The position numbers were made by a program, and so were the translations under genes. From Candidatus Thorarchaeota archaeon (GTDB lineage: Archaea > Asgardarchaeota > Thorarchaeia > Thorarchaeales > Thorarchaeaceae), in the NCBI GenBank assembly GCA_019057475.1, contig DXJO01000007.1:1-64000 (forward strand): a stretch of 64,000 nt of DNA, written 5' to 3'. The first letter of the stretch is position 1. Every line of letters starts with the position of its first letter. The notes below the pieces were generated by a model, which was given only the letters and a program-made list of their open reading frames with translations, did not search any database and was not told the DNA's origin. Below, in pieces: positions 1,296 to 37,090 of this stretch.

Positions 1296-2837
1296 TTACT
1301 CTGGTGGAAGCTGTCCGAAGATAGCACCCATATCGATGCCCTTTGCTTTGTTCTTCGCGCCATAGTACATGTACATTAGCTGACCCCAGAAGTACACGAA
1401 CACAGTGAATGCGACCTCATAGGTTAGTCCTGGTACATATGCAATGATGGCCCAGAAGAATACAATGCCGGCGATGAGTCCACCGATACTTATCAGCGGG
1501 ATGCCAAGGATCTTCCATGCCCCACTCCGCTCCCATAACGTAGGCCGGTAGTACGGTAACGCTACGGCAGCTAACGCCATTTGCCACCTGATGAACACAT
1601 ACGTGTATCCGACACCTACGAGCGCGCTAAGCGCAGTGCCGTAAGTTATCTGTAGCCATGTGGCATATGCCGTTGTACCGATGGTGAGTATCAGCCAGAA
1701 GTACAGGGATACGTGCGGGACGTGGTACTTCGGATGTACGCTTGCAAATGATTCGGGACAGAACCGGTCCATTGCCATTGAATGGAACGGCCGTGTGACC
1801 CACAGAGCATTGCTCGGGGCGTCCAATACACTTGCATAGACTGGGCAAAGTATCACAAACCATGAAAGCGGATTGGTGCCGAGGATTACAGCAGCGTAGT
1901 TGCCGAATCCTGGGAACACTGTGCCTGAAAGGTTTGCCTTGTACAAGAAGTCACCCATGCAGCTCTTCAGCGCAAATCCTGACAGCAGGAAGAAGAATGC
2001 AATCCCTGCCCAACCCCCCATGTTGCTCAGAGGAATATTCTTGCTGGGCTGTGAAACCTCACCAGCAACTGGCATAATAAGATACGGCCACATCATACCT
2101 ACAGTAAGGATGAGTGCCGGTCCGATTGCACCTGGGTTGAAAGTGACATAATCCACTGGTGTCGTGACATTGATTGCATCTACTGTCGCGTAGGCTCCAG
2201 AGCCAAAGACTCCATCCCAAATCGCTGGAGTCATCGGAGTCATCAGCATCACTATGTCAGCTGTAAGTAAGGCGAGAATGTTAATTATCCCGCCGATAAT
2301 TATGAACCAGCCCAACCACTTGACACTGAGATAGCTGAATACGAAGCCCACAAGGGTCATTATTGTAGCCCAGATGAACAGATTGATTGGTTCGTTCAGG
2401 GCCACTGCTGCTGCAGTAATCGTAGCGTCACCCGTAGCACTTCCCATTACGAACAGGCCACCAGCAAAGATTTGCACCGCGAAGAAGCTTCCGACTCCCC
2501 TGAATACGGGGTTTGTGATTACGCTTCGCCAACCTTCCATAACACCAAAGATTGGGCTGAGACCTCTTCCGGTGAAGTAGTACGAGGCTCCTGACCTCGG
2601 CATTGAAAGCATAAGACACATGAGAGCAAGTGCTTCAAAGAATACCGTGCCAGCACCTATTGCAAACATTGGCACAAGGTGTGCGCCAGCAAACCACGTC
2701 GAGATCTGTGGTCCAGCAAAGTGGAACCACGGACCAAGCGTGAGGGCTATCGGTAGAAGCAATGCCATTCCTGTGCCTACTTCCTTAACTAGGCCGGAGC
2801 TCTCTCGCACGAATAGGAGTTTATCCTCCTCACTCAT
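1296..2837 (-). CDS. APC-superfamily amino acid/polyamine permease
   Basis: Archaeal APC N-terminal motif LFVRESSGLVKEV, MPRSG motif, AGEV..PSKNIP, about 12 TM segments, C-terminal ..LPPE. Confidence 0.85.
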   Translation of the reverse strand: MSEEDKLLFVRESSGLVKEVGTGMALLLPIALTLGPWFHFAGPQISTWFAGAHLVPMFAIGAGTVFFEALALMCLMLSMPRSGASYYFTGRGLSPIFGVMEGWRSVITNPVFRGVGSFFAVQIFAGGLFVMGSATGDATITAAAVALNEPINLFIWATIMTLVGFVFSYLSVKWLGWFIIIGGIINILALLTADIVMLMTPMTPAIWDGVFGSGAYATVDAINVTTPVDYVTFNPGAIGPALILTVGMMWPYLIMPVAGEVSQPSKNIPLSNMGGWAGIAFFFLLSGFALKSCMGDFLYKANLSGTVFPGFGNYAAVILGTNPLSWFVILCPVYASVLDAPSNALWVTRPFHSMAMDRFCPESFASVHPKYHVPHVSLYFWLILTIGTTAYATWLQITYGTALSALVGVGYTYVFIRWQMALAAVALPYYRPTLWERSGAWKILGIPLISIGGLIAGIVFFWAIIAYVPGLTYEVAFTVFVYFWGQLMYMYYGAKNKAKGIDMGAIFGQLPPE

Positions 2838-4351: not shown

Positions 4352-5548
4352 TCAGTCATCAGGAATGTAGTAGGGATCAAGAATCTCTTCATCTACAAGT
4401 CCTGCAGACACGGCCATGAGTTCAGCAACATCTAGGACCCTGATTGCTGCATCAGCCTCGTACGTTGCATGAGTCAGATTCATCTCGCATGCGGGACAGA
4501 TGGTTGCCACTATCTCGGAGCCTGTCGCCAATACGTCAGTAAGGCGCTCACGAGATACTGCCCGAGAATAATCGGGGTACATCAGCTTGACCCCTCCTCC
4601 ACCTCCACAGCAAAATGACTCCGCTTCCTTTCGACTCATCTCTACAAACTCAAGTCCAGGGATTGCATTCAACACCTTTCGAGGGGGCTCGTAGATATCC
4701 CGATACCTGCCAATCTCGCACGGGTCGTGGTATGTTACGCGTTTCTTCACTTTGTGCTTGAGCTTGATCTTCTTCTTCTCAACAATCTCCTCTAGGACCT
4801 CACTTGTGTGGCGCACCTTGATTGGCAACTTCTCGACCCCAAGGATTCGGGGGTATTCTTCGTCAAAGGCTCTGAAACAAGACGGACAGGGTGTGATAAT
4901 CACTTTGACACCGCGATTCTGCATCTTTTTCAGCTGTGCTGAAACCATCTTCTTGGCCTCTGCCATGTTTCCGGTTATCCAGAGAGGAGTTCCACAGCAT
5001 GTTTGCTCATCTCCAAGGAAGTCCAGATCATAACCTGCCGCCTGGAGCAGCTGCACTAAGATTCTCGTCTTCTCTTTGAACCGATGACTGGCAAGACAGC
5101 CTGGATAGAATAGAATGCCTGAGCCTTTCTTAAACTCAAGACCTTCCGCCCATTTTGCATGAAATGCGGGGCTATCACCAAAGATGTTCCCCTTCTCCAT
5201 AGCCAGGGATGCCATCTCATTTCCAGCTTCGGGAATCTTTACGCCATGGTCCACAAAATCAGCACGCATTGCCTTCGTTATTTCTACTATATCAATTTGA
5301 GCGGCTTTCTTGCATTCCTCTTTACACCTGGCACAGAGAAAGCAGCCGAAGATTCTCTCAGCAAGATCCTCAGTATACTCCAGCTTTCCTTCTAGGAGGG
5401 CGCGTGCGATTAGCATTCTGCCACGCGCAGTTGATGACTCCCACTTCTGTGTGAATATCTCAGGACAGCGCTCATTGAAATCAAAGCCGCGACAGAATTC
5501 ACACCTGCCGCACGCATAGATCATCTCTGCGTACTCTTCAATTCTCAT
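4352..5548 (-). CDS. Fe-S oxidoreductase, GlcF/HdrD-like (ferredoxin motifs plus two CCG domains)
   Basis: CxxCxxC...CP twice, TCCG, CPSC, YHDPC, FCCGGGGG, CPAC. Confidence 0.9.
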   Translation of the reverse strand: MRIEEYAEMIYACGRCEFCRGFDFNERCPEIFTQKWESSTARGRMLIARALLEGKLEYTEDLAERIFGCFLCARCKEECKKAAQIDIVEITKAMRADFVDHGVKIPEAGNEMASLAMEKGNIFGDSPAFHAKWAEGLEFKKGSGILFYPGCLASHRFKEKTRILVQLLQAAGYDLDFLGDEQTCCGTPLWITGNMAEAKKMVSAQLKKMQNRGVKVIITPCPSCFRAFDEEYPRILGVEKLPIKVRHTSEVLEEIVEKKKIKLKHKVKKRVTYHDPCEIGRYRDIYEPPRKVLNAIPGLEFVEMSRKEAESFCCGGGGGVKLMYPDYSRAVSRERLTDVLATGSEIVATICPACEMNLTHATYEADAAIRVLDVAELMAVSAGLVDEEILDPYYIPDD

Positions 5549-6927
5549 AGCAGCTCCTCCTTTGGGATGAAGATGCCGCGCTGCAGTATGTTCTTCGGAT
5601 CTACTGCTTTCTTGATTACCTTGAGTAGACGATAGTATCCGGTGTTTCGAGCCTCAACAATCGGCCTGAGTCCCTCTCGCCCGCCAATACCATATGGAAC
5701 AACTGGACCACTGAGTACAAGCTCATTGATCTCATCGGCGAGCTTCATTATCATCTCAGATTCTTCTGGCTCCTTGTAGTTCGTGACCATGAATGCGAGC
5801 CAATCGCGTGGCAGGAAATTCCCTCCAAACCCGGCCTTCGTGTATCCTCGTTTCTCGATAAGTTCCTCTCTCCAAATTTTGTAGATGACCCCAATATCGT
5901 CAATCCGCAGAGACCCTGAGCCAAAGAAGTGCCACACCCCTGTGGCGAATATGTCGGTGAGACCTGTCAGGATTCCATCGAAGTAACCATTCGCAGGTTC
6001 AGAATCGCCGAACACTCCTCCAAGTTCCTTCACCTTCTCAATCACACGCTCTTTTCTGTGCTCAATGATTTCCTTTTCATATCCAAAGACATCCATCATT
6101 AGCAAGAACACATCTGGGGCTGAGGGGTCCACCCAGAGATAGGCGCCCTGAAGGTATTCATCGCCCACATGGCGGTTGATGAAGTGCCCGAACTCTATGA
6201 CCTTGTCAAGGCTGTCCATTGTGGCTAAGAGACGCTCTTTGAAATCTGTTGCAGGTCGGATTCGCAGAGTCAGCTCCGTACAGATACCCAGAATGCCCTC
6301 GGCACCGATAAACAGCCCAGCCAAGTCAGGACCCAGGCACTGTCTCTTGAACTTACCAGCGCTTGGCCAGGCCGCTGAGCCGGTTTCCACAACTTCACCG
6401 TTGGGTAAAACCATCTCAAGTGTGATTATGTCCTGATTACCGTGGAAACCAAACTTTGCTGTGCCATGGGGACCGCCGCCACCCTTCATAACTGACCCAC
6501 CAATCGTCATTGCAGGACCGCCTGCTTCGCTGCAGAGGTAAGTAAGTCCTTGTTTTCTGAGTTCGAAATCCAGTTTCGCCCATGTGCAGTTCGGTTGGAC
6601 TGTGGCTGTTAGATCGCGCTCGTTTATCTCTACTATAGCATTCAGGAAGGATAGGTCAAGCATGATGCCAGGTTCTTGAGCAAGGAATGCATCCCAGTGA
6701 GAAGTCCCACCCCCTCTTATGTAGATGGGCACATCATGCATATTGGCAATCTTCAGGATCCCCTGAATCTCCTCACGACTCTTTGGCATGACAACATGAG
6801 TTGGGAGTTTCTCCTTTGCAGGGCTGAGGTCTCGCCCATAAGGAATCAAGTCAAAATGTTTGTCACTTACACGGTCAGAACCAACAACTTTAACCAAGAG
6901 CTTGGTTATCTTGCCAACATTGGCCAT
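5545..6927 (-). CDS. FAD-linked oxidoreductase (GlcD/VAO-PCMH fold)
   Basis: P..VV.P, RGGGT, TIGGS, LEMVLPNGE, GPDLAGLFIGAEGILG, K..VDPKNIL; 4-nt overlap with the Fe-S gene. Confidence 0.9.
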   Translation of the reverse strand: MANVGKITKLLVKVVGSDRVSDKHFDLIPYGRDLSPAKEKLPTHVVMPKSREEIQGILKIANMHDVPIYIRGGGTSHWDAFLAQEPGIMLDLSFLNAIVEINERDLTATVQPNCTWAKLDFELRKQGLTYLCSEAGGPAMTIGGSVMKGGGGPHGTAKFGFHGNQDIITLEMVLPNGEVVETGSAAWPSAGKFKRQCLGPDLAGLFIGAEGILGICTELTLRIRPATDFKERLLATMDSLDKVIEFGHFINRHVGDEYLQGAYLWVDPSAPDVFLLMMDVFGYEKEIIEHRKERVIEKVKELGGVFGDSEPANGYFDGILTGLTDIFATGVWHFFGSGSLRIDDIGVIYKIWREELIEKRGYTKAGFGGNFLPRDWLAFMVTNYKEPEESEMIMKLADEINELVLSGPVVPYGIGGREGLRPIVEARNTGYYRLLKVIKKAVDPKNILQRGIFIPKEELL

Positions 6928-7076: not shown

Positions 7077-8210
7077 ATGAAACCCCGCGAACGATTCCAG
7101 AAAGCTATGAACTATGAGGAACCTGACCGAGTGCCAATTGACCTTTGGATAACAGGGGCGGCATATGAGAACCTCAAGAGCCACCTCAGAATCATAGCAC
7201 CTGGGACCCAAGAATGGGGAATTATGAGCAACTGGAAGATCTCTGAGGAGATGCTTCGCAGGCTCCATGTGGATTTCCGACGCGTGTACATGAATCCGTC
7301 GTCAAGTTTTGAGCCAAAGGACCATGGCGACGGCACGATTGACAGCGAATTCGGCTCTCGCTTTGCGTGGTTTGGTCCCTATTTGGAGGTCGTTCACTTC
7401 CCGTGGGCTAAGTTCACCGAGATCGAACAGGTTGAACAATACGAGTGGCTCGACCCTGATGACCCCTCAAGGATGGATGGCGTCGTGGAGCGAGCAAGGT
7501 ATCTTCACGAGGAAACAGACTTTGCAGTTATCGGGATGGTCGGCGGACCTTGGGGTGCGTTCGAAATCTGTGCACACTACATGAGGGGCTTCGACAAGTT
7601 CCTTGTTGATTTGGCCACTCGAAAGGACCTTGCAAAGGCCATGATGGATAAGTCAATGAATCTGGCAATTGAGATGAACAGAGTGCTCCTTGATGAGGCG
7701 GGGGATTACTTGGACCTTGTACTCGTGGGCGATGACCTTGGCCATCAACACGGGCTCATAATGAGTCCCAAAATGTATCGTGACTTGGTCAAACCGAGGC
7801 ACAAGAAAATCTACGGAGACATCCACAAGCGCGCTCCGCATGTCAAGGTGCTCTATCACTCCTGCGGGGCCATAGAGCCGATGATTGATGACCTCATTGA
7901 AGTTGGGGTTGACATTCTAAACCCCCTTCAGCCTCTGGCAAGGGGAATGGAATCAGCACTGCTCAAGAGGAAATACGGTGACCGTATCTGTTTCCATGGA
8001 GGCGTCGACCTGCAAGATGCCATGGCGGCAACTGGCACCTTGGATGATGTGAGAAAGGAAGTTGAAACGAGACTCTCAGCTTTCGCTCCCGGAGGCGGCT
8101 ACATATTCGCGCCGGCACATAACCTACAACCTGACTCGACCCCAGAGAAGATTGTGGAGATGTACGACCATGCAGAGAAGAAGGGAAAATACCCGATTTC
8201 TGCAAACTAG
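7077..8210 (+). CDS. uroporphyrinogen decarboxylase / MtaA-CmuA methyltransferase family protein
   Basis: MKPRERF...EPDRVP, GDDLG.Q.G.IMSP, YHSCG, GGVD, GGGYIFAPAHN. Confidence 0.85.
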   Translation: MKPRERFQKAMNYEEPDRVPIDLWITGAAYENLKSHLRIIAPGTQEWGIMSNWKISEEMLRRLHVDFRRVYMNPSSSFEPKDHGDGTIDSEFGSRFAWFGPYLEVVHFPWAKFTEIEQVEQYEWLDPDDPSRMDGVVERARYLHEETDFAVIGMVGGPWGAFEICAHYMRGFDKFLVDLATRKDLAKAMMDKSMNLAIEMNRVLLDEAGDYLDLVLVGDDLGHQHGLIMSPKMYRDLVKPRHKKIYGDIHKRAPHVKVLYHSCGAIEPMIDDLIEVGVDILNPLQPLARGMESALLKRKYGDRICFHGGVDLQDAMAATGTLDDVRKEVETRLSAFAPGGGYIFAPAHNLQPDSTPEKIVEMYDHAEKKGKYPISAN

Positions 8211-8238: not shown

Positions 8239-8907
8239 CTAGGGTATCGGTCGCTCCTTATGTAGTTCATGAGGATCTTTACCCTCGTCCAGTTTTTTTG
8301 CCCACCAGTCATCAGTGTCTACTATTCCTTCTGCAGCTGCCAGAACTTCATCAACAGAGTCCCGAGACACAACGACCACACCATCACCATCGCCGAAGAT
8401 TAGATCTCCGGGATGAACTGTCACGCCACCGCATAGTATTGGCTCGCCGATACTTTCCATGTCCATGCGTCCACGCATCGTGGCGGGATGGCGACCTCTA
8501 GCGAAGACAACGAAATCCGTTTTGTCAATGGTTTCGATGTCGCGGACAGTGCCGTCTACTACAGCACCACGAATCCCCAGTGGTTGACCTATTTGCGTTA
8601 GCACCTGACCCCAACCAGAACAATCCGTGGCATCGGACATGTTGATCACAATCAAGTCGTTGGTTTTTGCCTTGGTGGCAAGACTCATGAACTGATCCAG
8701 CTGGGTTTCGTCGTACGGGCGATCAACAGGTGACCTCACCAACTTCCCAGGCCGTGCGAATCCAACCATCTTCTGTTTCATGGTCATCGGTTTGATGCCA
8801 CGGTCCATGCAGACACGCCCTATGCCCACTTCATCAGCGCCATCAGACAGAGCTGGCACATAGAGTTTCAAACAACGCCCGATAATCTGGCTTCTCTTAT
8901 TGGTCAT
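8239..8907 (-). CDS. RraA / HMG-aldolase family protein
   Basis: LSDG.D, WGQV, GAVVDGTVRD, GGVTVHPGDLIFGDGDGVVVV. Confidence 0.85.
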   Translation of the reverse strand: MTNKRSQIIGRCLKLYVPALSDGADEVGIGRVCMDRGIKPMTMKQKMVGFARPGKLVRSPVDRPYDETQLDQFMSLATKAKTNDLIVINMSDATDCSGWGQVLTQIGQPLGIRGAVVDGTVRDIETIDKTDFVVFARGRHPATMRGRMDMESIGEPILCGGVTVHPGDLIFGDGDGVVVVSRDSVDEVLAAAEGIVDTDDWWAKKLDEGKDPHELHKERPIP

Positions 8908-8922
8908 GGTTTCACCTTCAAC

Positions 8923-9399
8923 CTACTTCCGCTTTTCATACCTGTAAATGCAGTAATCATCTCCGCGCATCATACACTTGGGCAAAGTCATCGTTGTATT
9001 CGGGTCTACCGCCTGACCGATCCCCACATCGATTTCGCATACCCAATGACATATGTCAGAACCAGCACCCTTTGCCCTGAATGTGTCAATCCAAGGACAA
9101 GAGGTCACTTTCATCTCCAGAACCCTATCTGATGCCTCAAGCAACTCGATGTCAAACCCGAAGTATGGATGCGCTCCATCGAAGAACCCAAAGATGGATG
9201 CCAAGTCTCCCGCTCTGAGACCCCCGTCTTTGATACCTTCTTTCCCCAGATCTATACCGTGCAAGCGGTTGGCTTCTCCGATTACCGCCAAGCCTTCGGC
9301 CCCCATTAATCTGCGGATGGCCTCGATATAGACCACATGCGTGGAGGCTAACGTGGCCATGCTACTTCTTCTGACATCGTCTGCTGATGGACCGGTCAC
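8923..9399 (-). CDS. ATC-hydrolase / V4R-like Cys-containing protein
   Basis: VTSCPW, C..VC..D, CMMRGDDYC pattern. Confidence 0.7.
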   Translation of the reverse strand: MTGPSADDVRRSSMATLASTHVVYIEAIRRLMGAEGLAVIGEANRLHGIDLGKEGIKDGGLRAGDLASIFGFFDGAHPYFGFDIELLEASDRVLEMKVTSCPWIDTFRAKGAGSDICHWVCEIDVGIGQAVDPNTTMTLPKCMMRGDDYCIYRYEKRK

Positions 9400-9535
9400 T
9401 CGTCACACATCCTTGGCTCTTCGATACGGATGAGATTGCAGCGAACATTAAGCACATCCCCATATATCTTAGGCCATCCTTTAGAGGGACGCTTCAAGAG
9501 GTTATTTAAACGGGGAGTTTGCCCACGTCGATTCA

Positions 9536-10708
9536 TTGGTGCCTTTGATGCTTGCAGATAGAAACAAACTGATTCCACAAAGCGAAATCAGAAGGATGTA
9601 CAACATGGCCTTCGGTCGGGAAGACATCCTTGACATGACGGTGGGTCTTCCCGATTTCGAAACCCCCAGTTTCATAATCAAGGCGGCCAAGAAAGCTATG
9701 GATGATGGATTCACCAAGTACACGCACAATGCAGGTCTCCTTGAGGTCCGGGAGGCATTAGCTAGAAAGCTGAAGCGCGAGAACAACATCGTCGCAGATC
9801 CAGAAACCGAGGTTCTCTGTACTGTGGGTGGCATGGGCACACTCGTCCTGACGAACATGGCGCTGGTCAATCCGGGAGACGAGGTGATTTATCCAGACCC
9901 GGGTTTCGTTAGTCATCGATCCCACGTCCTGTTAGCAAGAGGGAAACCTGTCCCAGTGCAGTTGAAGAAGGAAAATGGATTCGGTGTTCGAGCGGAAGAC
10001 ATTGAAGCTTTGATTACCGATAAAACAAAACTGCTAGTTTTGAACCACCCAAACAATCCAACCGGGGGTGTTCTGTCGAGGAAAGAAATGGAGAAAATCG
10101 CTGACCTAGCCATCCAGCATGACCTCTTCGTGCTATCCGATGAAGCCTACGAGAAGTTCCATTACGGAGAAGAGAATCCAGGACTCTTTGGGGCACTTCC
10201 GGGAATGAAGGAGAGGACGATCACTCTCATCTCATTCTCCAAGACCTATGCCATGACAGGATGGAGAATCGGCTTTTCCACGGGTCCTGCAGAAATTATT
10301 CATGCTATGACGATGCTTCAGGAGCATTTCGTTTCTCATCCTACCTCAATCTCGCAAAAGGCGGCGCAGGCCGCAGTAGATGGTCCGCAGGACTGTGTAA
10401 AGAAGATGTATGATACATTCAAAAAGCGGAGGACCATCATCACAAAAGGGCTGCAAAGTATCGAGGGTATAGAGCTAGACCGCCCGGGTGGTGCGTTCTA
10501 CGTGTTTCCTGATATAAGGGCTTACGGATTGAAATCGTTTGATCTCGCCAAGAAACTCCTAGATGACACTGGTGTTGTTACAGTCCACGGATCTGGATTC
10601 GGGCAATATGGAGAAGGTTTCCTCCGTCTATGCTATGCTGTGTCCACAGAACGAATAGAAAATGCTTTGCAGAGATTGGATACCTACCTGCCAAAGCTCC
10701 TCAAATGA
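9536..10708 (+). CDS. class I/II PLP-dependent aminotransferase (AspC-like)
   Basis: G.PDF.TP, NHPNNPTG, SDEAY, SFSKTYAMTGWRIG, GAFY. Confidence 0.95.
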   Translation: MVPLMLADRNKLIPQSEIRRMYNMAFGREDILDMTVGLPDFETPSFIIKAAKKAMDDGFTKYTHNAGLLEVREALARKLKRENNIVADPETEVLCTVGGMGTLVLTNMALVNPGDEVIYPDPGFVSHRSHVLLARGKPVPVQLKKENGFGVRAEDIEALITDKTKLLVLNHPNNPTGGVLSRKEMEKIADLAIQHDLFVLSDEAYEKFHYGEENPGLFGALPGMKERTITLISFSKTYAMTGWRIGFSTGPAEIIHAMTMLQEHFVSHPTSISQKAAQAAVDGPQDCVKKMYDTFKKRRTIITKGLQSIEGIELDRPGGAFYVFPDIRAYGLKSFDLAKKLLDDTGVVTVHGSGFGQYGEGFLRLCYAVSTERIENALQRLDTYLPKLLK

Positions 10709-10742: not shown

Positions 10743-13124
10743 TTGGTAGTGTTTTCAGGGATGACCTCCAGAACAAAGCGCATGAAACGGAGGATGCTCG
10801 AATCGCCCCCCACGATATCGGCTGAGCGAGCTGAGCTCTTCACCGCCTACATCAAAGACCATGTGCAGGAACCAGCCAAACTCAGGCTAGCAAAGGGCTT
10901 TGCCAACGTCCTCCTCAATATGACAATCCGGATTGAGCCCGAGGAACTCATTGTAGGGAATATGGGGTCAACGCAGAGATCATGTCAGATATTCCCAGAG
11001 TACAGCTGGAGATGGATAGAGCAGGAATTAGACAGATTCGAGAAGCGACGAACCGAGAAGTTCATCATTAGCGAGAAGGACAAGAACACGCTCCGCGAAG
11101 TATTCGAGTTTTGGAGAGGAAGAAGCACTGCTGAGATATGCGCGACGGAAATGCCCGAAGCAGCCCAGCGTGCATCCAAAGCCGGACTGTTCACCATTGG
11201 AGCACCGGGAACAGGCATAGGTCACGTGATTGTTGACTATCAACGCGTGCTGAATGATGGCCTAGAGGCTATCCTAGCAGAAACTGCGCTTCTCAAGGAA
11301 GCGGAAGACGATTCCGAGAAATCAGTATTCTACGAGGCGGTCGGGATTGAGATTCGTGCTGTGATAGGATTCGCAGAGAGATTCGCTGAGCTGGCTGAAG
11401 AACAGGCGAAGAGCGAGAGGGATACGAAAAGAAAGAAGGAACTCATCACCATCGCAAAGGCGTGCAGACGCGTTCCAGCTAAGCCCGCCCAGAGCTTTCA
11501 AGAGGCATTGCAATCATTCTGGTTCATTCAGCTACTAGTGCAGATCGAATCGAATGGTCACTCCATCTCCACGGGGAGATTCGACCAGTACATGCACCCC
11601 TACTACATCAGGGACATCGAGTCTGGACAAATGGCAAGGGAGGAAGCTCTCGAACTCCTTGAGATGTTGTGGATTAAATTCTCCAGCATAATTAAACTGA
11701 GGAATGAATACTACAGCACTGCGTTTGCAGGACATCCGATGTTCCAGAATCTGACAATTGGAGGACAGGATTCGGATGGCAATGATGTGTGTAATGAGGT
11801 CACAGACCTAGTCCTCGAAGCTACTGCGAACGTGAGAGTGACTCAGCCAACTGTGTCATTCAGGTGGCACAAGAACACACCCGAGAACATTAAAATGAAG
11901 GTCACCGAAGTAGTTTCGCAGGGCTTGGGCATGCCCGGCTTGTTCAATGATGAAATCATCATCCCGCTAATGGCGAAGAAAGGCACGGATAAGGAAGAAA
12001 CGCACGATTACTCCGTACTGGGATGTGTCGAGCCCATCATCGAAGGGAAAAGCGATCCACGAGCAAACATCGGGTATGTGAACCTATTGAGAATACTCGA
12101 AGTCACCTTGAACGGGGGCAAAGACCCGAGAACAGGAAACATGGTGGGATCCAAAACCGGCAATCCACATGACTTCGAATCATTTGGCGAGCTGTGGAAT
12201 GCTTACAAGGAACAGATTGACCATGCAATAGACCTTCTTACCAGCGCGGACAGGATTGCTGCTGGCATTCTGGCCAGTGAGAAACCCACGCCCTTTATCT
12301 CGGCGCTCCTGCAGGACTGCCTCAAGAACGGGAAGACAATGCAAGAAGGCGGTGCCAAGTACAACTCAGGCGGTATAATGGGCGTTGGAGTTGCCATGGT
12401 TGCAGATTCCCTTTCCATGATTAGAAAATACGTGTTTGAAACCAAGCAGATGACTATGAGCAATCTTCTGGAAGCCTTAGCGGACAACTTTGAAGAACAC
12501 GAAGAACTTAGAGCCCGCCTTGACAATGACTCAGAGAAGTACGGCAATGACTTGGAAAAGGTCGACATGCTCGCTCGGGAAACTGGAAAAGCATTTTGCG
12601 AATCCATCCAATCGAGAATGACAGCACGTGATGGTCCATATCATGGAGCGTTATTCTCAGTATCAATGTATATTCCTCAGGGCGAAACCGTAGGTGCAAC
12701 GCCGGATGGACGGAAAGCAGGACTCATGTTGTCGGATGGAGTCTCACCAGCACACAGTAGGGATATACATGGACCAACCGCAGCAATGAAGTCAGTAGCC
12801 CGTCTTGACCACGGGCTCTGTTACAATGGAACACTCTACAACATGAAATTCATGCCACATAGCTTTGACACGGAGGCAGGACGGAAGAGATTCATAGGTC
12901 TCGTCGACGCCTATTTTGAGCTTGGGGGCCTTCACGTGCAATTCAATGTAGTTGACAGAGAGACCCTTGAAGATGCAAGAGTCAATCCGCATCTTCACCG
13001 AGACCTCATAGTTCGTGTAGCAGGGTACAGCGCTTATTTCATCGAACTCGATCCATTCGTGCAAGACGAGGTCATAGCTCGTACCGAATTCTCCACCGGA
13101 ACCGGCTGGAGGATATCTTGTTAA
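10743..13124 (+). CDS. glycyl radical enzyme, glycerol/diol dehydratase-like (PFL2 group)
   Basis: NGHSISTGRFDQY, single-Cys loop GCVEP, ATPDGR, C-terminal glycyl-radical motif RVAGYSAYF. Confidence 0.92.
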   Translation: MVVFSGMTSRTKRMKRRMLESPPTISAERAELFTAYIKDHVQEPAKLRLAKGFANVLLNMTIRIEPEELIVGNMGSTQRSCQIFPEYSWRWIEQELDRFEKRRTEKFIISEKDKNTLREVFEFWRGRSTAEICATEMPEAAQRASKAGLFTIGAPGTGIGHVIVDYQRVLNDGLEAILAETALLKEAEDDSEKSVFYEAVGIEIRAVIGFAERFAELAEEQAKSERDTKRKKELITIAKACRRVPAKPAQSFQEALQSFWFIQLLVQIESNGHSISTGRFDQYMHPYYIRDIESGQMAREEALELLEMLWIKFSSIIKLRNEYYSTAFAGHPMFQNLTIGGQDSDGNDVCNEVTDLVLEATANVRVTQPTVSFRWHKNTPENIKMKVTEVVSQGLGMPGLFNDEIIIPLMAKKGTDKEETHDYSVLGCVEPIIEGKSDPRANIGYVNLLRILEVTLNGGKDPRTGNMVGSKTGNPHDFESFGELWNAYKEQIDHAIDLLTSADRIAAGILASEKPTPFISALLQDCLKNGKTMQEGGAKYNSGGIMGVGVAMVADSLSMIRKYVFETKQMTMSNLLEALADNFEEHEELRARLDNDSEKYGNDLEKVDMLARETGKAFCESIQSRMTARDGPYHGALFSVSMYIPQGETVGATPDGRKAGLMLSDGVSPAHSRDIHGPTAAMKSVARLDHGLCYNGTLYNMKFMPHSFDTEAGRKRFIGLVDAYFELGGLHVQFNVVDRETLEDARVNPHLHRDLIVRVAGYSAYFIELDPFVQDEVIARTEFSTGTGWRISC

Positions 13125-13191
13125 ACGACACATTTAACATTCGCGCGATTCACCCATACCCAGATTAAGCTGACACGTGAGGCTGAACTTG

Positions 13192-14187
13192 ATGGGTTAC
13201 GATGTCGTTACCTTCGGCGAAGTAATGCTAAGGCTTTCGCCCCCTGACTTCATGCGATTTGAGAACACCGTGAGTTACAACGCTAATGCAGGCGGCGCCG
13301 AAATGAACGTTGCAGTGGCATGTGCAAGACTCGGTTTGAAATCAGCATACGTGACCAAGCTTGGTGACAACTCTGTTGGACATTTCATACGCAACAAGGC
13401 AAGGGAGCACGGAGTTGATACATCGCATATTCTCTGGGACTCCAACAGTCGATGTGGCGTTTATTTCGTGGAGTTCGGAGCTGCACCCCGGACAAATCGA
13501 GTCATCTACGATAGAAAGCACTCAGCAATCAGTAAAATCACACCAGGTGAGGTTCCGTGGAGGAACATCCTGAAAGGCACGAAGCTGTTTCACACCAGCG
13601 GAATCACGCCAGCGTTGAGTGAGTCGTGCGCCCGAGCTACCGAAGAGGTTCTGAAGACTGCCAAAGAACAAGGATGCAAGGTTTCCTATGACGTCAATTA
13701 TCGAGGTAAGCTTTGGACTACTGTCGAGGCTCGCAAATTCACAGAACCGGCCTCCAAGTACATTGACATCCTGATAACAACGGAAGAAGATACGAAGATC
13801 GTCTATGGCATCGAAGGCAAAGATTACGAAGAGGTTGCACAGAAATTAACAGACAAGTTTGGATTCGAAGCAGTCGTTATAACTCTCCGCGAAACCCCCT
13901 CTGTTTGGCATAACAAGTGGTCTGTTTTTGCCTACTCAGATGGCAAGGTGTACAAGAGTCCGACATACGACATCGAAGTTGTCGACAGGCTTGGCGGAGG
14001 AGACTCCTGCAGTGCAGGATTCATCTATGGATATCTCAAGCTGAAGGATCTACAGAAAGCAGTTGAGTTCGGCTCAGCCTTCTCAGCTCTGAAACATTCT
14101 GTGCCTGGGGATTTAGCATTTGTCTACCGGGAGGAAGTCGAGAAACTCATCAAAGGACGCAAGCGCGGTCTGCGTATCGAGAGGTAG
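13192..14187 (+). CDS. kdgK: 2-keto-3-deoxygluconate kinase (PfkB family)
   Basis: VTFGEVMLRLSPP, GGAEMNVA, HTSGITPALS, SYDVNYR.KLW, VDRLGGGDS, ALKHSVPGD; directly before eda. Start taken after an RBS-like GTGAGG. Confidence 0.85.
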   Translation: MGYDVVTFGEVMLRLSPPDFMRFENTVSYNANAGGAEMNVAVACARLGLKSAYVTKLGDNSVGHFIRNKAREHGVDTSHILWDSNSRCGVYFVEFGAAPRTNRVIYDRKHSAISKITPGEVPWRNILKGTKLFHTSGITPALSESCARATEEVLKTAKEQGCKVSYDVNYRGKLWTTVEARKFTEPASKYIDILITTEEDTKIVYGIEGKDYEEVAQKLTDKFGFEAVVITLRETPSVWHNKWSVFAYSDGKVYKSPTYDIEVVDRLGGGDSCSAGFIYGYLKLKDLQKAVEFGSAFSALKHSVPGDLAFVYREEVEKLIKGRKRGLRIER

Positions 14188-14856
14188 GTGAACAATACTA
14201 TGTGGAACAAGCAAGATGCAATGAATCTAATCAGTGAAACTGCACTCATCCCGATCATCAGGGTGGATTCGATAGATGTCGGATTCAAAGTTGCAGATGC
14301 CTTTCTGGAAGGTGGTGTAAACATCATCGAAGTCACATTCAGTGTGCCTGGAGCCACAGAGTGCGTCCGTCAGCTCTCAGAGAAAATTGGCGACGAAGTG
14401 CTAATTGGCACTGGCACGGTCCTTGACCCTGAAACTGCTCGCAGGGCTATTCTGGCCGGTAGTGAGTTCATCGTTAGCCCAACCTATTCCAGAGAGCTCA
14501 TCGAGATGTCTAGAAGGTATGCGAAACCGGTGTTCCCGGGAGCGCTGTCCCCGACAGAGATTCTTGAAGCCTACACCATGGGAGCTGATGCAGTGAAAGT
14601 GTTCCCATGTGGGACCGTGGGAGGAGCATCCTACATCAAGGCGGTCAGGGCGCCTCTACCACAGATACCTCTAATCCCCACAGGCGGTGTGAACCTTGAA
14701 ACCGCAGGACCCCTTCTTGATGCGGGCGCCTTTGCACTCGGGGTGGGCGGTGCCATTACGGATAAGAAAGCCATCAAGGAAGGGAATTACGAAATCATAA
14801 CAGAGAATGTCAAGAAGTTCCTCAAAGTGGTCAAGAAGCACAGGAGTAAGAAGTGA
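14188..14856 (+). CDS. eda: KDPG / 4-hydroxy-2-oxoglutarate aldolase
   Basis: IEVTF, IGTGTVLD, FIVSP, SPTEI, VKVFP, PTGGVN. Confidence 0.92.
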   Translation: MNNTMWNKQDAMNLISETALIPIIRVDSIDVGFKVADAFLEGGVNIIEVTFSVPGATECVRQLSEKIGDEVLIGTGTVLDPETARRAILAGSEFIVSPTYSRELIEMSRRYAKPVFPGALSPTEILEAYTMGADAVKVFPCGTVGGASYIKAVRAPLPQIPLIPTGGVNLETAGPLLDAGAFALGVGGAITDKKAIKEGNYEIITENVKKFLKVVKKHRSKK

Positions 14857-15283: not shown

Positions 15284-16690
15284 GTGGATCAGAAAGTAGT
15301 AGATGAGCTTGCCCGGATCGTGGGCGACGAATTCGTGTCGACACGTGATGATGTACTTCTGACTTATTCCGCCTCGGCATCGATAGGATACGACTCAGTT
15401 CGTCCTGGAGCTATCGTAAGACCTGGAAGTACTCAAGAGGTTGCTGATATTCTCACGGTTGCCAACAAGTACAAAATCCCGGTGACACCACGTTCTGGAG
15501 GGTCAAGCCTCCAGGGAGAAGCTATTCCAAGACCTGATGGTCTGGTCATTGAACTCCTAAGACTTAAGGACATCACGGTATTTGAGGACCTCAGATCAGT
15601 CAGGGTTGGGGCAGGAATTACCTTTGGCAGGCTCGATAAGTTCCTGAACCAATACGACCTCTGGGTGCCCGTCTATCCGGAGTCAGCATTAGTCTGCACA
15701 CTGGCCGGGAATGTTGCTGTCAATGGCGCCGGACCAGGTTCAAGCACCTATGGTTGCATCGCTGAGATGGTCCTCGGACTTGAAGTAGTTCTGCCGGATG
15801 GTACGATAATCCAGACAGGTACAGAGGGCAATCCAAATGCTCCCGGTCCATTCTTGCGCTATGCCTTTGGACCGGATCTGACAGGCCTATTCATAGGATC
15901 TCTGGGCATTCTTGGGATAATAACCAGCGTGTCAGTAAAGGCATTCAAGAAGATGCACCATTTCCACTATGAAACGTATGGGTTTGATAGAGCAGAACAG
16001 ACTGAAAAATTCCTGATGGACCTGAAGCAAAATGAGATAGGCGTTCTGTTCGCATCAATCTACGAAGGCGAAATCCTAAGCTTCTTCATGGACATGGTCG
16101 AAGTGGAGTTTGGGATTCCGAAACACGAATGGCCTCCGTTCACGATCTCTGCAATCCTCGGCAGAGTCAGAGAAGATCAGCTGAAGAGCGACACCGAACT
16201 AACAAAAAGGATTTGCGAAGAGCTTGGAGGACATGTCATTGGAATAAGTGAGCTTCCTAGAGGTGAGTGGGATAAACGAATGTGGACTTTTGCCCGCACC
16301 TCTTACCTCCACGGATGGCACTGGCGTATTCTTTATCACCACCAGACGCCATCAAACTGGCACCGCTCAATTGAGGAAATATGGGCAGTAATGGACAAGT
16401 ACGGCTTGCTTGGCCACACTGCAGGCTTTCTGACAGGTCATGGGAGCTACAATTTTTATCCCCACCTCTACTTCGATCCGCAAGACAGAGAGGAAGAGAT
16501 GAAGGTTAGAGAGGCTCACAAGGAGCTCGCTCAGCGCCTCTTCAAAACCGGGGCAGTTCCATTCAAGCTTGCACCTTACTGGATCGAGGACGTCGAGGAG
16601 ATGAAGGATTATCTCAATCTCATCAAGACATTGAAACGGGTGATGGACCCCAACAACATCATGAATCCTGGCATCTTCGGGGAAATGTGA
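15284..16690 (+). CDS. FAD-linked oxidoreductase (GlcD/VAO fold), paralog 1
   Basis: PRSGGSSL.G, T.AGN, GLEVVLPDG, GPDLTGLFIGS.G.LG, DPNNIMNPG. Confidence 0.9.
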   Translation: MDQKVVDELARIVGDEFVSTRDDVLLTYSASASIGYDSVRPGAIVRPGSTQEVADILTVANKYKIPVTPRSGGSSLQGEAIPRPDGLVIELLRLKDITVFEDLRSVRVGAGITFGRLDKFLNQYDLWVPVYPESALVCTLAGNVAVNGAGPGSSTYGCIAEMVLGLEVVLPDGTIIQTGTEGNPNAPGPFLRYAFGPDLTGLFIGSLGILGIITSVSVKAFKKMHHFHYETYGFDRAEQTEKFLMDLKQNEIGVLFASIYEGEILSFFMDMVEVEFGIPKHEWPPFTISAILGRVREDQLKSDTELTKRICEELGGHVIGISELPRGEWDKRMWTFARTSYLHGWHWRILYHHQTPSNWHRSIEEIWAVMDKYGLLGHTAGFLTGHGSYNFYPHLYFDPQDREEEMKVREAHKELAQRLFKTGAVPFKLAPYWIEDVEEMKDYLNLIKTLKRVMDPNNIMNPGIFGEM

Positions 16691-16716
16691 TATTAGTTAG
16701 AGGAGTGCAGAACTCA

Positions 16717-18123
16717 GTGAACAAGAGGATAGTCTCGGAACTTGCCAAGATTGTTGGCGAGGAATATGTATCCACCAGAGAGGATGTTCTCCTCACGTAT
16801 TCTGAGACTGCGTCTATGGCTAAAGACCCAGTGACTCCAGGGGCTGTAGTGCGACCCGGGTCTGCTGAGGAGGTATCGCAGATACTTCAGCTCTGCAACA
16901 AACACAAGATCTTGGTGACTCCGCGCTCAGGCGGATCTTCACTTCAGGGGGAAGCTATCCCCAAGCCGGACGGTTTGGTTGTTGAGCTCTTGCGAATCAA
17001 GGGTATCACTCTTCACAAGGAACTCAGGTCTGTAACAGTCGGAGCGGGCATGACATTTGGTGAGCTCGATAAGTTCCTGAATCAACATGATCTCTGGATT
17101 CCCATCGCCCCTGAATCAGCTTTGGTCTGTACAGTTGCGGGCAATGTGGCTGTCAACGGCGCGGGTACCGGATCTAGCGCTTACGGCAGTATTGCAGAGA
17201 TGGTCCTTGGCGTGGAGGTAGTTCTGCCGAATGGAGAGATCATACAGACGGGGTCAGAAGCGAACCCCAATGCTCCGGGCCCATTCCTAAGATATGCCTT
17301 CGGGCCAGACCTAACAGGGTTGTTCATTGGGTCTCTTGGAAGTCTTGGAATCATAACGAAGGTTTCCCTGAAGACCTACAAGCGAATGCATCACTTTCAC
17401 TACGAAACATATGGATTCGACACGGCTGAGCAGGCTGAGAAGTTCCTTATAGAGATTAAGAACAATGATGTCCTCCCGATGTTTGCGTCCATCTACGAAG
17501 GCCCGGTGCTCAGCTTCTTTATGGACATGGTGGGTGAGGAGTACGGAATTCCGGAACATGAATGGCCCGATAGGACAATTTCAATGACAATTGGTCGACT
17601 CAGGGAAGACCAACTGAAGAGCGACGTTAGGAAAGCCAAGGAGATTTGTGAGCAACTTGGTGGACACGTGATAGGCATCAGTGAATTGCCACAAGGAGAA
17701 TGGGACGGCCGCCTCTGGGTCTTTGTGAGAACGTGTTACATACACGGCTGGCACTGGCGCACCCTGTACCATCATCAAACGCCTACGAACTCTCATCGCT
17801 CAGTGGAAGAGATAACGGCTGCCATGGATGAGCATGGATTTCTTGGGCACACCGCCGGATTCCTCTCTGGGCATGCCAGTTTCAACCTTTATCCCCATTT
17901 TTATTTTGATCCGCTCGACAGAGAAGAAGAACACATGATACGCGCTGCGCATGATGAGCTCGCTACTGCGCTCTACAAGACAGGGGCAGTTCCATTCAAA
18001 CTCGCAGAGTACTGGAAGGGCCGCATGGAAGGAATGGAGGACTACATGAAGCTCCTCTCCGCAATCAAAGAAGCGCTCGACCCTAACGGAATACTTAACC
18101 CGGGTGTACTTGGAGGCATATGA
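16717..18123 (+). CDS. FAD-linked oxidoreductase, paralog 2 (tandem duplicate)
   Basis: Long identical stretches with paralog 1 (e.g. NPNAPGPFLRYAFGPDLTGLFIGSLG). The GTG start at 16717 follows GGAG and aligns with the paralog 1 N-terminus. Confidence 0.9.
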   Translation: MNKRIVSELAKIVGEEYVSTREDVLLTYSETASMAKDPVTPGAVVRPGSAEEVSQILQLCNKHKILVTPRSGGSSLQGEAIPKPDGLVVELLRIKGITLHKELRSVTVGAGMTFGELDKFLNQHDLWIPIAPESALVCTVAGNVAVNGAGTGSSAYGSIAEMVLGVEVVLPNGEIIQTGSEANPNAPGPFLRYAFGPDLTGLFIGSLGSLGIITKVSLKTYKRMHHFHYETYGFDTAEQAEKFLIEIKNNDVLPMFASIYEGPVLSFFMDMVGEEYGIPEHEWPDRTISMTIGRLREDQLKSDVRKAKEICEQLGGHVIGISELPQGEWDGRLWVFVRTCYIHGWHWRTLYHHQTPTNSHRSVEEITAAMDEHGFLGHTAGFLSGHASFNLYPHFYFDPLDREEEHMIRAAHDELATALYKTGAVPFKLAEYWKGRMEGMEDYMKLLSAIKEALDPNGILNPGVLGGI

Positions 18124-18126
18124 GAA

Positions 18127-19290
18127 ATGACTGAGATTGACCTAGAAGAACTGATGGAAAACTTGGCGCAGTGTCGCAGATGTGGAATCTGCCGCGATGC
18201 TGTGTATGAAGACATGGGTTTTGACGGCATATGTCCTGTCTGGAAGAACACAGCAGGCTTTGAAACGAGCTTCATGCGAGGGAAACTCATGATTGCCATT
18301 GCCCTGCTTGAAGGACGGCTTGAGAAGACAGCAGACAACGCGGAAGCCCTATACTCATGTTCGCTCTGTGGGAACTGTACTGAGATATGTGCAGCGGAGT
18401 TTGATCCAACAAAGTCGCTTGAGTTGGCTAGGGCGGTTCTGAGTGACATCCCCAATGAGGTGCGGGATGCCATTGCAGAGAGGATTTTGACCACCAACAA
18501 TCCGTATGTCACGGACAAGAAAGGAAAACGCGACTGGGTAGCGGAGCTGGGGTTTGAGCCTCCAACCAAGGCTGACACGCTATACTACTTCGGATGCACT
18601 GCAGGCATGAAACTGCCCGAAACCGCCAAAGCAGCAGCGAAGCTGCTTAAGGCGGCGGGTATCGAGTTTGCGGTTCTAGAGGACGAGCCATGCTGTGGGT
18701 CCGTTATGATTCGAACAGGTCGACTCCAAGATGCCAAAGAAAATGCGAAGAAGGTGCTTGAATCAATCCAAGAGTCAGGAGCCAAGATTGTTCTCGTATC
18801 ATGTGCTGGCTGCCTCAAGACTCTGAGAAAGGATTATCCTGAGAAATTCAACCTGTCCATGCCCAAGGTAGTCCACTTCGTTGAGCACTTCCTAGAACTT
18901 GTTAAGAGCGGAAAAATCAAGCTCAAACCTCTAGGTGAGAACGTGAAGATTACATATCATGACCCCTGTCACATGGGTCGAGAGTTAGGCATCTACGAAG
19001 AGCCGAGAGACCTACTGAAGGCGATACCGGGGGTAGAACTCGTAGAGATGGAAACCAACAGGCGAGCTGCAATGTGCTGTGGAGCTGGAGGCGGGTTGCG
19101 CTCATATGATCCAGAACTCTCCAAGAAAATCGCAGCTGATAGAGTCAGAGAAGCTGAAAACGCAGGTGCGGAGATTATCGCCAATGCCTGCCCCTTCTGT
19201 GAGCAAAATCTCGAAAGCGGTGCCAAACTAATAGATAGCTCGATAGGAGTGGCCGACATTGTGGACCTCATTGTGGATCTTATTGAGTGA
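18127..19290 (+). CDS. Fe-S oxidoreductase, GlcF/HdrD-like with CCG domains
   Basis: CRRCGIC..CP, CSLCGNC...C, PCCG, CAGC, YHDPC, CCGAGGG, CPFC. Confidence 0.9.
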   Translation: MTEIDLEELMENLAQCRRCGICRDAVYEDMGFDGICPVWKNTAGFETSFMRGKLMIAIALLEGRLEKTADNAEALYSCSLCGNCTEICAAEFDPTKSLELARAVLSDIPNEVRDAIAERILTTNNPYVTDKKGKRDWVAELGFEPPTKADTLYYFGCTAGMKLPETAKAAAKLLKAAGIEFAVLEDEPCCGSVMIRTGRLQDAKENAKKVLESIQESGAKIVLVSCAGCLKTLRKDYPEKFNLSMPKVVHFVEHFLELVKSGKIKLKPLGENVKITYHDPCHMGRELGIYEEPRDLLKAIPGVELVEMETNRRAAMCCGAGGGLRSYDPELSKKIAADRVREAENAGAEIIANACPFCEQNLESGAKLIDSSIGVADIVDLIVDLIE

Positions 19291-19694: not shown

Positions 19695-20762
19695 ATGGAT
19701 GACATTAAGGTAGCCCTCATTGGCATAGGTAATTGTGCAAGCGCTCTTGTGCAGGGTGTTGAATTCTATAAGAATGCAAAAGCGAACGGTGATGTGATTG
19801 GACTCAATCACACGGATTTCGCAGGATATCATGTTCGCGACATCAAGTTCGTGGCAGCCTTTGACGTTGTTGAAGGCAAAGTAGGGCTTGACCTCTCAGA
19901 GGCTGTGTTCGCAGAACCGAACAACGTGATGCGGTTCAGTGAGGTACCAAAGACAGGCATCAAGGTTCTCAGAGGGCCGCTACTCGATGGTGTTGATGAC
20001 AACCTTCGAGCCCTTGTCAAGATATCCAATGACAAGGAAGCAGATGCTGCCAAAGCCCTAAAGGAATCAGGGGCTGAGATGGCAATCAATCTATTACCCG
20101 GCTCTGCCCAAGAAGCGACGGAGTTCTATGCCAATGCATGTCTTGAGGCCGGCTGTGCGTTCATCAATGGCACACCCATAGAGATCGCTTCAAACCCGGA
20201 ATGGAACAGGAAGTTCAACGAGAGGGGAATCCCGCTCGTCGGTGACGACATCCAGGACCAACTTGGTTCAACTGTACTCCACAGAAACATTCTGCAATTG
20301 CTAGTTTCTCGAGGTGTACGTGTGGACAAGAGCTACCAGCTCGACGTAGGAGGAGGCGCAGAATCACTCGATTCTCATTATCGCGGACGCCTGCGAAAGC
20401 GGGATATAAAGACCTCTGCAATCAGTCAAGATCTCCCATACGACGCACCCCTTGTCGCAGGTTCTTCTGATTACGTTCAATTCATGAACAATGAACGCGA
20501 GTCATACTTCTATGTGCACGGAAGGCAGTTTGGAGGAGCACCAATCACAATAGACATACGGGTGGAAATGACTGACGGACCGAATGCAGGACCAATCCTC
20601 CTTGATGCGATTAGAGGGACTAAGCTTGCATTGAAGAGAGAGATAGGTGGGGCACTCGAATCCATATCGGCTTATGGCTTCAAGAAACCGCCAAAACCCA
20701 CGACAATGTATCGTGCGGAGAGATGGGTTGAGGAGTTCCTACTGAACAAGAGAAGGCTGTGA
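19695..20762 (+). CDS. ino1: myo-inositol-1-phosphate synthase family protein
   Basis: IKVALIGIGNCASALVQG, FVAAFDV..KVG.DL, GDDI..QLGST..H, YQL..GG, D.PN.....DAIR..KLA. Confidence 0.9.
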   Translation: MDDIKVALIGIGNCASALVQGVEFYKNAKANGDVIGLNHTDFAGYHVRDIKFVAAFDVVEGKVGLDLSEAVFAEPNNVMRFSEVPKTGIKVLRGPLLDGVDDNLRALVKISNDKEADAAKALKESGAEMAINLLPGSAQEATEFYANACLEAGCAFINGTPIEIASNPEWNRKFNERGIPLVGDDIQDQLGSTVLHRNILQLLVSRGVRVDKSYQLDVGGGAESLDSHYRGRLRKRDIKTSAISQDLPYDAPLVAGSSDYVQFMNNERESYFYVHGRQFGGAPITIDIRVEMTDGPNAGPILLDAIRGTKLALKREIGGALESISAYGFKKPPKPTTMYRAERWVEEFLLNKRRL

Positions 20763-30976: not shown

Positions 30977-31570
30977 ATGACTGAAATGCAGCCATCAGCG
31001 GCCGATGCTGATGATACAAGCACCGGATTCAAGTATAGAGTGGTATTGTTGGGAGAGGCTTCTGTAGGCAAGACTTCACTTCTCAGAAGGTTCGCTGAGA
31101 ATGTGTTCGATGAAGTATACAAACAGACCATAGGAACCACTTTTGCCTCCAAGGATGTTGCTGTCGTTGGCGAAGATGGTATGAAGCGCAATGTGCGTCT
31201 CGTGGTTTGGGACATGGCGGGTCAAGCAACATACCGCGAGTTGAGACGCCAGTTCATGAAAGGAGCATCCGCTGCAGTGATAGTGTACGACGTTACCAGG
31301 CCAGAAACTTTCATGAGTTGCAATAATTGGTTCGAGGCGTTTCGTGAAACATGCCCTGAAGCAGCAGTCATCGTCGCTGCGAATAAGATTGACTTGGAAG
31401 AAGAGAGGATTGTGCCAATAGAGCCCGGATGGATGTTACGGGACTGGTTCCAAGCCAATTACTATGAAACCTCTGCAAAGACCGGAGCCAAGGTTACTGA
31501 TGTCTTCACTAAAGTTGCTGAGATTGTTCTTAAGAGAGGCTTGGGTCAACGTAGTGACCTAGCCATGTGA
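30977..31570 (+). CDS. Ras-superfamily small GTPase (Rab-like)
   Basis: G1 GEASVGKTS, G2 YKQTIG, G3 WDMAGQ, G4 NKID, G5 ETSAK. Confidence 0.93.
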   Translation: MTEMQPSAADADDTSTGFKYRVVLLGEASVGKTSLLRRFAENVFDEVYKQTIGTTFASKDVAVVGEDGMKRNVRLVVWDMAGQATYRELRRQFMKGASAAVIVYDVTRPETFMSCNNWFEAFRETCPEAAVIVAANKIDLEEERIVPIEPGWMLRDWFQANYYETSAKTGAKVTDVFTKVAEIVLKRGLGQRSDLAM

Positions 31571-36781: not shown

Positions 36782-37090
36782 TCAGAGCTTAGTCAGAGTA
36801 ACAAGAATAAACTCTTCTTGAGGAGCAATGCGAATTCCACCGAAGGTCGTTTGAACCTGGATGAAATGCAAATCACCGCCCTCATTGACCTGTCTGATGA
36901 TTTCTTTTGTCTTACCGATGAGGGCACTGAGCAGCGCCGATATCTCTTCAGCTCTTTCTAGACTTACGCCCCAGCTGTTTATCGGAAAGCCCTCTGGACT
37001 GATGAAGAGTGCGGCATAGACGTCCGGAAACTTGCTGGTAATATTCTGGATTATTCGTTCAAAGATCTCCCGCTTTGGCATTGCCGGCAT
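36782..37090 (-). CDS. Roadblock/LC7-domain protein
   Basis: A.FISPEGFPI.S.....E.ISAL.S.L......L..I.V.T..G.I.IAP...FILV. Confidence 0.85.
   Translation of the reverse strand: MPAMPKREIFERIIQNITSKFPDVYAALFISPEGFPINSWGVSLERAEEISALLSALIGKTKEIIRQVNEGGDLHFIQVQTTFGGIRIAPQEEFILVTLTKL

Follow-up and report, generated by a model that had tools for sequence, protein, structure and literature searches.

Glycerol dehydratase (GD) of C. butyricum (1R8W, 1R9D) and propanediol dehydratase (PD; 5I2G, 9RCO), at ~41% identity, are the nearest solved structures to a glycyl radical enzyme (GRE) encoded in the first 64,000 nucleotides of a contig (DXJO01000007.1; hereafter the window) from Candidatus Thorarchaeota, an Asgard archaeon of marine sediment, where its gene is directly followed by kdgK and eda. 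Further described GREs offer points of comparison: YbiW/PflD (8ID7, 8ID0) of radical glycolysis is likewise a CxE GRE, acts on a sugar derivative and feeds an aldolase (PMC13450708), a part that is proposed here for the window GRE; and HypD, HpyG, HpzG and HplG set the precedent for GREs acting on carboxylate- and amine-bearing substrates. A 2026 review describes all functionally characterised pyruvate formate-lyase (PFL)-like GREs as bacterial and archaeal GREs as a clear gap; it lists no GRE with an aldonate substrate and does not mention gluconate (PMC13450708). KdgK and the aldolase for KDPG (2-keto-3-deoxy-6-phosphogluconate) form the lower part that the window shares with the semi-phosphorylative Entner-Doudoroff pathway (gluconate dehydratase-KdgK-Eda) and with the DgaE glucosaminate-6-phosphate ammonia-lyase route (PMC9529869). 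We give about an even chance to the reading that this Thorarchaeia-specific, oxygen-sensitive GRE furnishes KdgK and Eda with a 2-keto-3-deoxy sugar acid and so opens a radical route into a lower pathway of Entner-Doudoroff type. That the cassette is an orphan pathway is well supported; its substrates we infer.

The window GRE shares with GD and PD the fold, the single Cys in CxE, the Gly loop and equivalents of His164, His281, Ser282 and Phe333. Unlike GD, it reads R-x-N for W445-H446-D447, Phe for Tyr640 and Tyr for Asn645, with a different 150s loop, and unlike both enzymes it sits on a separate branch, in a kdgK-eda context and with no adjacent activase. With the sugar-phosphate-processing YbiW it has in common an Arg at Cys+12, which in YbiW we take to bind the substrate phosphate. 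It differs from YbiW/PflD in identity (34-36%), in its score on the PflD equivalog (613 bits, far under the cut-off of 1109), in having KdgK/Eda downstream instead of a deoxyfructose-phosphate aldolase, and in the kinase acting after the GRE, not before. From the HypD-type hydroxyproline GREs it is set apart by identity (31-35%), by the HypD model (596 vs 1100 bits) and by an island without pyrroline-5-carboxylate (P5C) reductase. In HypD the carboxylate is bound by Ser334, where other eliminases (PMC7077986) and the window GRE (Phe328) have Phe. Unlike the semi-phosphorylative Entner-Doudoroff pathway, the cassette has a GRE in the place of an enolase-type, Edd/IlvD or UxuA dehydratase, none of which was found.

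Family, active site and phylogeny of the glycyl radical enzyme

The probable start is the ATG at 10761 (Met7), where homologues begin. A PFL-like barrel, a C-terminal RVxG glycine and a TIGR01774 profile score of 770 bits (cut-off 678) place the protein in the PFL2/GD subfamily of the GRE superfamily, and an alignment-based model (pLDDT 95) matches GD 1R8W with a TM score of 0.96. The catalytic loop carries a single Cys in the CXE motif rather than Cys-Cys, and C428-V-E430 is invariant in 121/121 clade members. This motif is a mark of GRE eliminases and isomerases (PMC13450708), and the enzyme is therefore assigned to the 1,2-eliminase/isomerase type. It scores at least 350 bits under the NCBIfam equivalog cut-offs for HypD, CutC, HpfG, HpsG, PflD, IAD, HPAD and PFL. 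Judged from its sequence, it is a 1,2-eliminase/isomerase-type GRE that falls outside the GD and PD families and the others named here. An earlier note, written from the DNA alone, had proposed just such an uncharacterised eliminase-type GRE in an anaerobic archaeon; the source is Thorarchaeota, and the enzyme, below all characterised-family cut-offs and in a clade of its own, neither clusters with a characterised GRE nor keeps all of its substrate residues. A PFL identity was dropped for want of Cys-Cys, and a benzylsuccinate synthase identity at 27% identity. Clade member P0053 (Thorarchaeota AB_25, 70% identical) carries the label benzylsuccinate synthase alpha subunit; it looks misannotated, and the label could feed claims of hydrocarbon degradation.

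The GRE motifs are GIGH (158-161), NGHS (271-274), FAGH (328-331), GCVE (427-430), PRAN (439-442), ALFS (636-639) and RVAG (758-761). The first, second and fourth are those that the earlier note recognised as kept from GD, and its replacements of GWHD by PRAN and of GLY by ALF are real against 1R8W, with Arg440 gained and the Asp447 equivalent lost invariantly. Its change of FAGY to FAGH as a departure from GD fails: GD reads FGGY, FAGY being the PD motif, and position 331 is His, Phe or Tyr across the 121 clade members, for which reason His331 was dropped as a specificity residue. Of the more basic pocket that it deduced, the invariant Arg440 stands, a single Arg, whereas His331 varies. Also invariant in all 121 are His161, His273, Ser274, Phe328, Phe334, Cys428, Glu430, Asp438, Asn442, His634, Phe638, Val640, Met642, Tyr643 and Gly761. 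In the alignment Trp445, Asp447 and Tyr640 of GD become Arg440, Asn442 and Phe638, so that the GD/PD substrate set (His164, His281, Ser282, Glu435, Asp447, Tyr640) is incomplete by its last two members, and Phe334/Val640 correspond to PD Phe344/Val696.

A scan of 1.8 billion 50%-identity representatives returned a single one matching the GRE at 72%, with all others at or below 46%; the GRE forms its own 50% cluster. Orthologues, 65-94% identical, are restricted to the window's own family among the genomes searched: outside Thorarchaeia the best match in ~230 other genomes of the phylum is 41%, and neither genome nor metagenome scans held a match between 46 and 65%. Close homologues are Thorarchaeota; records labelled Hermod-, Odin- or Promethearchaeota cluster with them and may be mislabelled.

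In a FastTree phylogeny of 108 sequences, whose deep support is modest and which includes the GD/PD-like representative P0125 and not the PDB sequences themselves, the clade is monophyletic (SH 100), P0125 branches apart, and the sister group consists of bacterial GREs (SH 94), most of which have the Cys+12 Arg. The neighbours of these sister GREs are P5C reductases and a MutL/B12-mutase pair in Emergencia, saccharopine dehydrogenase and an M20 peptidase in Synergistaceae, a DAO-family oxidase with an SSF transporter and an amino-acid kinase at another locus, and a class III aminotransferase and an ABC transporter for polar amino acids at yet another; kdgK was present at none of the sister loci inspected. 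Since the sister GREs sit in amino-acid loci, the scaffold seems derived from enzymes on amino-acid-type substrates, an ancestry that fits carboxylate binding, yet may warn of nitrogen involvement. As a separate observation, bacterial GREs P0122, P0126, P0128 and P0299 (L071-L079, L174) carry Asp-x-Arg after the Cys loop and form a functionally uncharacterised group in lysine, ornithine and proline catabolic contexts, with saccharopine dehydrogenase, P5C reductases, B12 mutase and class III aminotransferase as neighbours; they are candidate hydroxylysine/hydroxyornithine-type eliminases.

Linkage to kdgK and eda

With the kdgK start placed at ATG 13192, as in homologues, the kinase gene begins exactly 67 bp after the GRE gene, the distance given in the earlier note (52 bp if GTG 13177 is used). 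KdgK has as best PDB match the T. maritima 2-keto-3-deoxygluconate (KDG) kinase 2AFB (E 5e-83), with which its GGAExN, YFxE, YDR, DxNYR and GxGD motifs agree; it scores 313 against a cut-off of 440 for the haloarchaeal equivalog and is the sole KdgK-like protein of the source genome (G000, 96% complete). Eda passes the TIGR01182 cut-off, has PDB matches and retains the Schiff-base Lys, the Glu and Thr-Gly-Gly. In E. coli KDPG aldolase Thr161 governs stereoselectivity and Gly162/Gly163 bind phosphate (PMC3962226); equating Thr165 with Thr161 by motif, Thr-Gly-Gly would mildly favour a KDPG- over a 2-keto-3-deoxy-6-phosphogalactonate-type substrate, and hence makes a mild case against galactonate.

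Among 87 genomes of the class Thorarchaeia the GRE orthologue occurs in 61 (about 70%), kdgK in 61 and both in 60, out of 62 having either. The two genes are co-oriented neighbours in 54 of the 60, within 250 bp in 51; among the remaining six, G088 proved adjacent on inspection, three are seemingly cut by contig ends and two, of genus g4, are truly apart. Clade loci in metagenomes show the same gene order, and kdgK or eda stands beside none of the non-clade GREs (at most 50% identity) at ~80 loci with fetched flanks of up to 8-10 kb. The adjacency in 54 of 60 genomes and its lack beside non-clade GREs put the linkage above chance, and so answer in the affirmative the neighbourhood check suggested in the earlier note. 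In G041 the genes are separated and both intact. Three stops (residues 82, 236 and 612) interrupt the relocated GRE of G009 and two stops its kdgK, which lies on another contig; eda is frameshifted there, with the aminotransferase gene and most of the flanking genes left intact. Decay of both genes at separate loci, one event, is the best evidence of shared function beyond physical linkage. A split kdgK beside an intact GRE in G053, where several other genes are frameshifted, was taken as a likely sequencing error. In genus g12 (L030:11272-14715, L091:7219-10650) a gene of ~1145 aa is inserted between GRE and kdgK.

Family searches of the source genome, in which the controls gave matches, returned none for Edd/IlvD, UxuA, UxaA/GarD, the mannitol-DH or D-serine-dehydratase families, the uronate routes UxaC and UxaE, or the pectin/alginate routes KduI and GH88/105, and the sole enolase-superfamily match was enolase itself. 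The earlier note's statement that the cluster contains no Edd/IlvD or enolase-type dehydratase thus extends to the genome; Edd/IlvD was also not found in 56/61 GRE genomes. The genome has six unassigned short-chain dehydrogenases/reductases, so that a KduD/DEH-reductase-like KDG source is conceivable. No ordinary KDG source was apparent, then, among the gene families searched.

The source genome encodes three GREs and one TIGR02494 radical-SAM activase (C47:44413-45396; L185:2914-3897), which adjoins a different GRE. This activase is kept in G017, G019, G053, G059 and G100, where the only detected GRE is that of the clade. Searches revealed none in G009, G021, G024 and G025, where GREs are broken or undetected, nor in G001, which is fragmented. 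That it acts on the window GRE in trans is very probable, a pairing that we infer. The other two GREs (C40:70276-72648, C47:42014-44416) are uncharacterised, 35-36% identical to the window GRE and widespread in Thorarchaeia. Most Thorarchaeia genomes hold 2-4 GREs and a single activase match, though activases are described as GRE-specific; this suggests a shared, promiscuous activase, useful in vitro.

Proposed reaction and competing explanations

In the reading that the GRE supplies KdgK, to which the even chance applies, it would be a C-O eliminase or ring-opening isomerase. Following established GRE chemistry, the activase would install the radical at Gly761, the thiyl radical of Cys428 would take H from the carbon bearing OH (or NH2), Glu430 would deprotonate, His161 would aid departure of the neighbouring O-leaving group, and the product radical would be quenched to CH2 (PMC13450708). 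For the present enzyme H abstraction would fall at C2 and loss at C3, with Arg440, oriented as the alignment predicts, anchoring the substrate carboxylate; the KDG-type product would pass via KdgK and Eda to KDPG and on to pyruvate and glyceraldehyde-3-phosphate. Taken singly, each candidate substrate is unlikely: least so a plain aldonate of gluconate, mannonate or altronate type, a little more so a 2-amino-aldonate (glucosaminate-type, by HypD-like chemistry via an imine) and, equally with it, a 3-O-substituted or anhydro-aldonate (by YbiW-like ether cleavage). The earlier note overlooked the co-inheritance of the UroD-like, GlcD/GlcF and RraA genes, about as tight as that of kdgK, the aminotransferase at the operon head and the relatives in amino-acid loci; in view of these, gluconate or mannonate is no likelier a substrate than an amino- or O-substituted compound or one from an earlier step. 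The fuller proposal, in which a GRE aldonate/amino-aldonate dehydratase replaces Edd/IlvD, enolase-type enzymes and UxuA and, with GlcD/F, KdgK and Eda, gives most Thorarchaeia a strictly anaerobic Entner-Doudoroff pathway with a radical entry, is possible and less probable than not.

Several points weigh against the GRE as direct supplier of KdgK. Aldonate dehydration is easy polar chemistry that does not need a radical, and known GRE eliminases work on unactivated carbons. The support for the role is genomic; kin genomes are not independent, and only genus g4 separates function from linkage. kdgK owns a conserved upstream element, and next to its close relatives (with or without eda) in other taxa a dehydratase is often lacking; a conventional dehydratase stood beside none of the nearest outside relatives at five loci, an uninformative result. 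Neither an aldonate-forming enzyme nor an aldose dehydrogenase nor a sugar transporter could be identified (the transporter of the island is of APC type), and the clade's nearest relatives sit in amino-acid catabolic loci. Finally, co-inheritance of the UroD-like, GlcD/F and RraA genes is almost as tight as that of kdgK, so the GRE need not directly precede the KdgK step.

The last point leads to the strongest alternative, which we hold possible and rather less probable than direct supply: the GRE acts at an earlier step of the same pathway, its substrate a compound that contains nitrogen or is methylated, and KdgK-Eda finish. A polyhydroxy amino or imino acid, an amino-acid-sugar conjugate or a polyol would give a keto-deoxy intermediate, the 2-keto-acid end being made later by GlcD/GlcF or the aminotransferase while the UroD-like protein removes a methyl or carboxyl group. 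Besides the dispensability of radicals for plain aldonates, it draws on the UroD-like gene in 59/61 and the GlcD1 orthologue in 58/61 GRE genomes, on the aminotransferase directly upstream and the APC permease, and on the SH 94 grouping with Cys+12-Arg bacterial GREs. It fits less well with an aminotransferase that occurs alone, that is, without GRE and kdgK, in G020, G046, G049 and G050 and stays intact in G009, with the absence of a detected RraA-type gene from some GRE genomes and with Phe328 at the position of the carboxylate-binding Ser of HypD, and no concrete substrate explains all island genes.

That the GRE is a divergent glycerol/propanediol-like small-diol dehydratase, or unrelated to KdgK-Eda in an island gained and lost as a block, is improbable: GD and PD are the best solved matches, His161, His273, Ser274, Cys428, Glu430 and the PD-like Phe334/Val640 pair are kept, and most GRE-kdgK co-occurrence is physical linkage, but other residues invariably stand in the places of Asp447 and Tyr640, the GD/PD-like representative branches apart, identity to the solved GD and PD is only ~41%, the island has no diol-utilisation genes (alcohol or aldehyde dehydrogenase, shell proteins), and the G009 genes decayed at separate loci.

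The surrounding island and significance

The features of the island are collected in Table 1. GlcD1/GlcF1 follow the GRE pattern, and the UroD-like, GlcD1/GlcF1 and RraA-type genes were not found in G009. Its persistence alone in four genomes makes the aminotransferase a looser partner of the island; as an obligate partner it was dropped, on these genomes and on its intact state in G009. TTAT(A/T)TAAA stands at the same position before the aminotransferase gene across genera. Most of 22 loci have the GACAGATTTAACATT-like element upstream of kdgK, even where the upstream gene is not a GRE, often with a GTTAAA/TTTAAC half-site ~25 nt past it; the exact pattern recurs once elsewhere in the genome (C26:81604), and the element is a possible internal promoter or operator.

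Table 1. Coordinates of the cassette, its island and short DNA elements in the window
Feature	Position	Strand	Remarks
APC-family amino acid/amine permease	1296..2837	-	PF00324; island edge; syntenic in several loci
GlcD-like FAD oxidoreductase and GlcF-like Fe-S/CCG subunit (pair 1)	4352..6927	-	co-inherited
UroD/MtaA-family protein	7077..8210	+	HxC motif; co-inherited with GRE
RraA/HMG-CHA aldolase-like protein	8239..8907	-	mostly co-inherited
ATC-hydrolase/V4R-like small protein	8923..9399	-	PF14196; syntenic in most loci
TATA-box-like element	9502..9510	+	before aminotransferase; consensus match only
Class I pyridoxal phosphate aminotransferase	9536..10708	+	first gene of co-oriented run
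GRE, eliminase/isomerase type	10743..13124	+	793 aa open reading frame, intact; Cys428-Val-Glu430, Gly761
GACAGATTTAACATT-like element	13127..13142	+	~55 nt before kdgK; conserved
KdgK-type PfkB kinase (2-keto-3-deoxy-aldonate kinase)	13192..14187	+	2AFB match
Eda, KDPG/KHG aldolase	14188..14856	+	abuts kdgK; Arg25, Glu48, Lys137, Thr165-Gly-Gly
Two GlcD-like paralogues and GlcF-like subunit	15284..19290	+	downstream of eda; often, not always, syntenic

An Mrr-type endonuclease-domain protein (PF04471; 3089-3874, minus strand) has a stable place at the edge of the island across genera; in G009 it is split. In genus g2 (L027:3327-6755, L029:12829-16260) three genes follow eda, by eye a corrinoid protein, a second MtaA/UroD-like protein and an activator, which may be a rearrangement or a hint of methyl transfer. 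Elsewhere the window encodes a myo-inositol-1-phosphate synthase (19695-20762) and, by eye, two small Rab-like GTPases and a roadblock-like protein (30977-31570, 32899-33498, 36782-37090), Asgard eukaryotic signature types.

No title or abstract on this cassette came up in the open-access literature (searched as GRE with KDG, Thorarchaeota with GRE and Thorarchaeota with Entner-Doudoroff), and Thorarchaeia GREs are now annotated as PFL or benzylsuccinate synthase. With KdgK and Eda as reporter enzymes and a single identifiable activase, the function of this GRE is directly testable. Should the proposed role prove true, an archaeal eliminase-type GRE would have an assigned function for the first time, KDG formation would gain a new GRE reaction and a new protein family, and a carbon source could be named for an Asgard lineage that is widespread in sediment.

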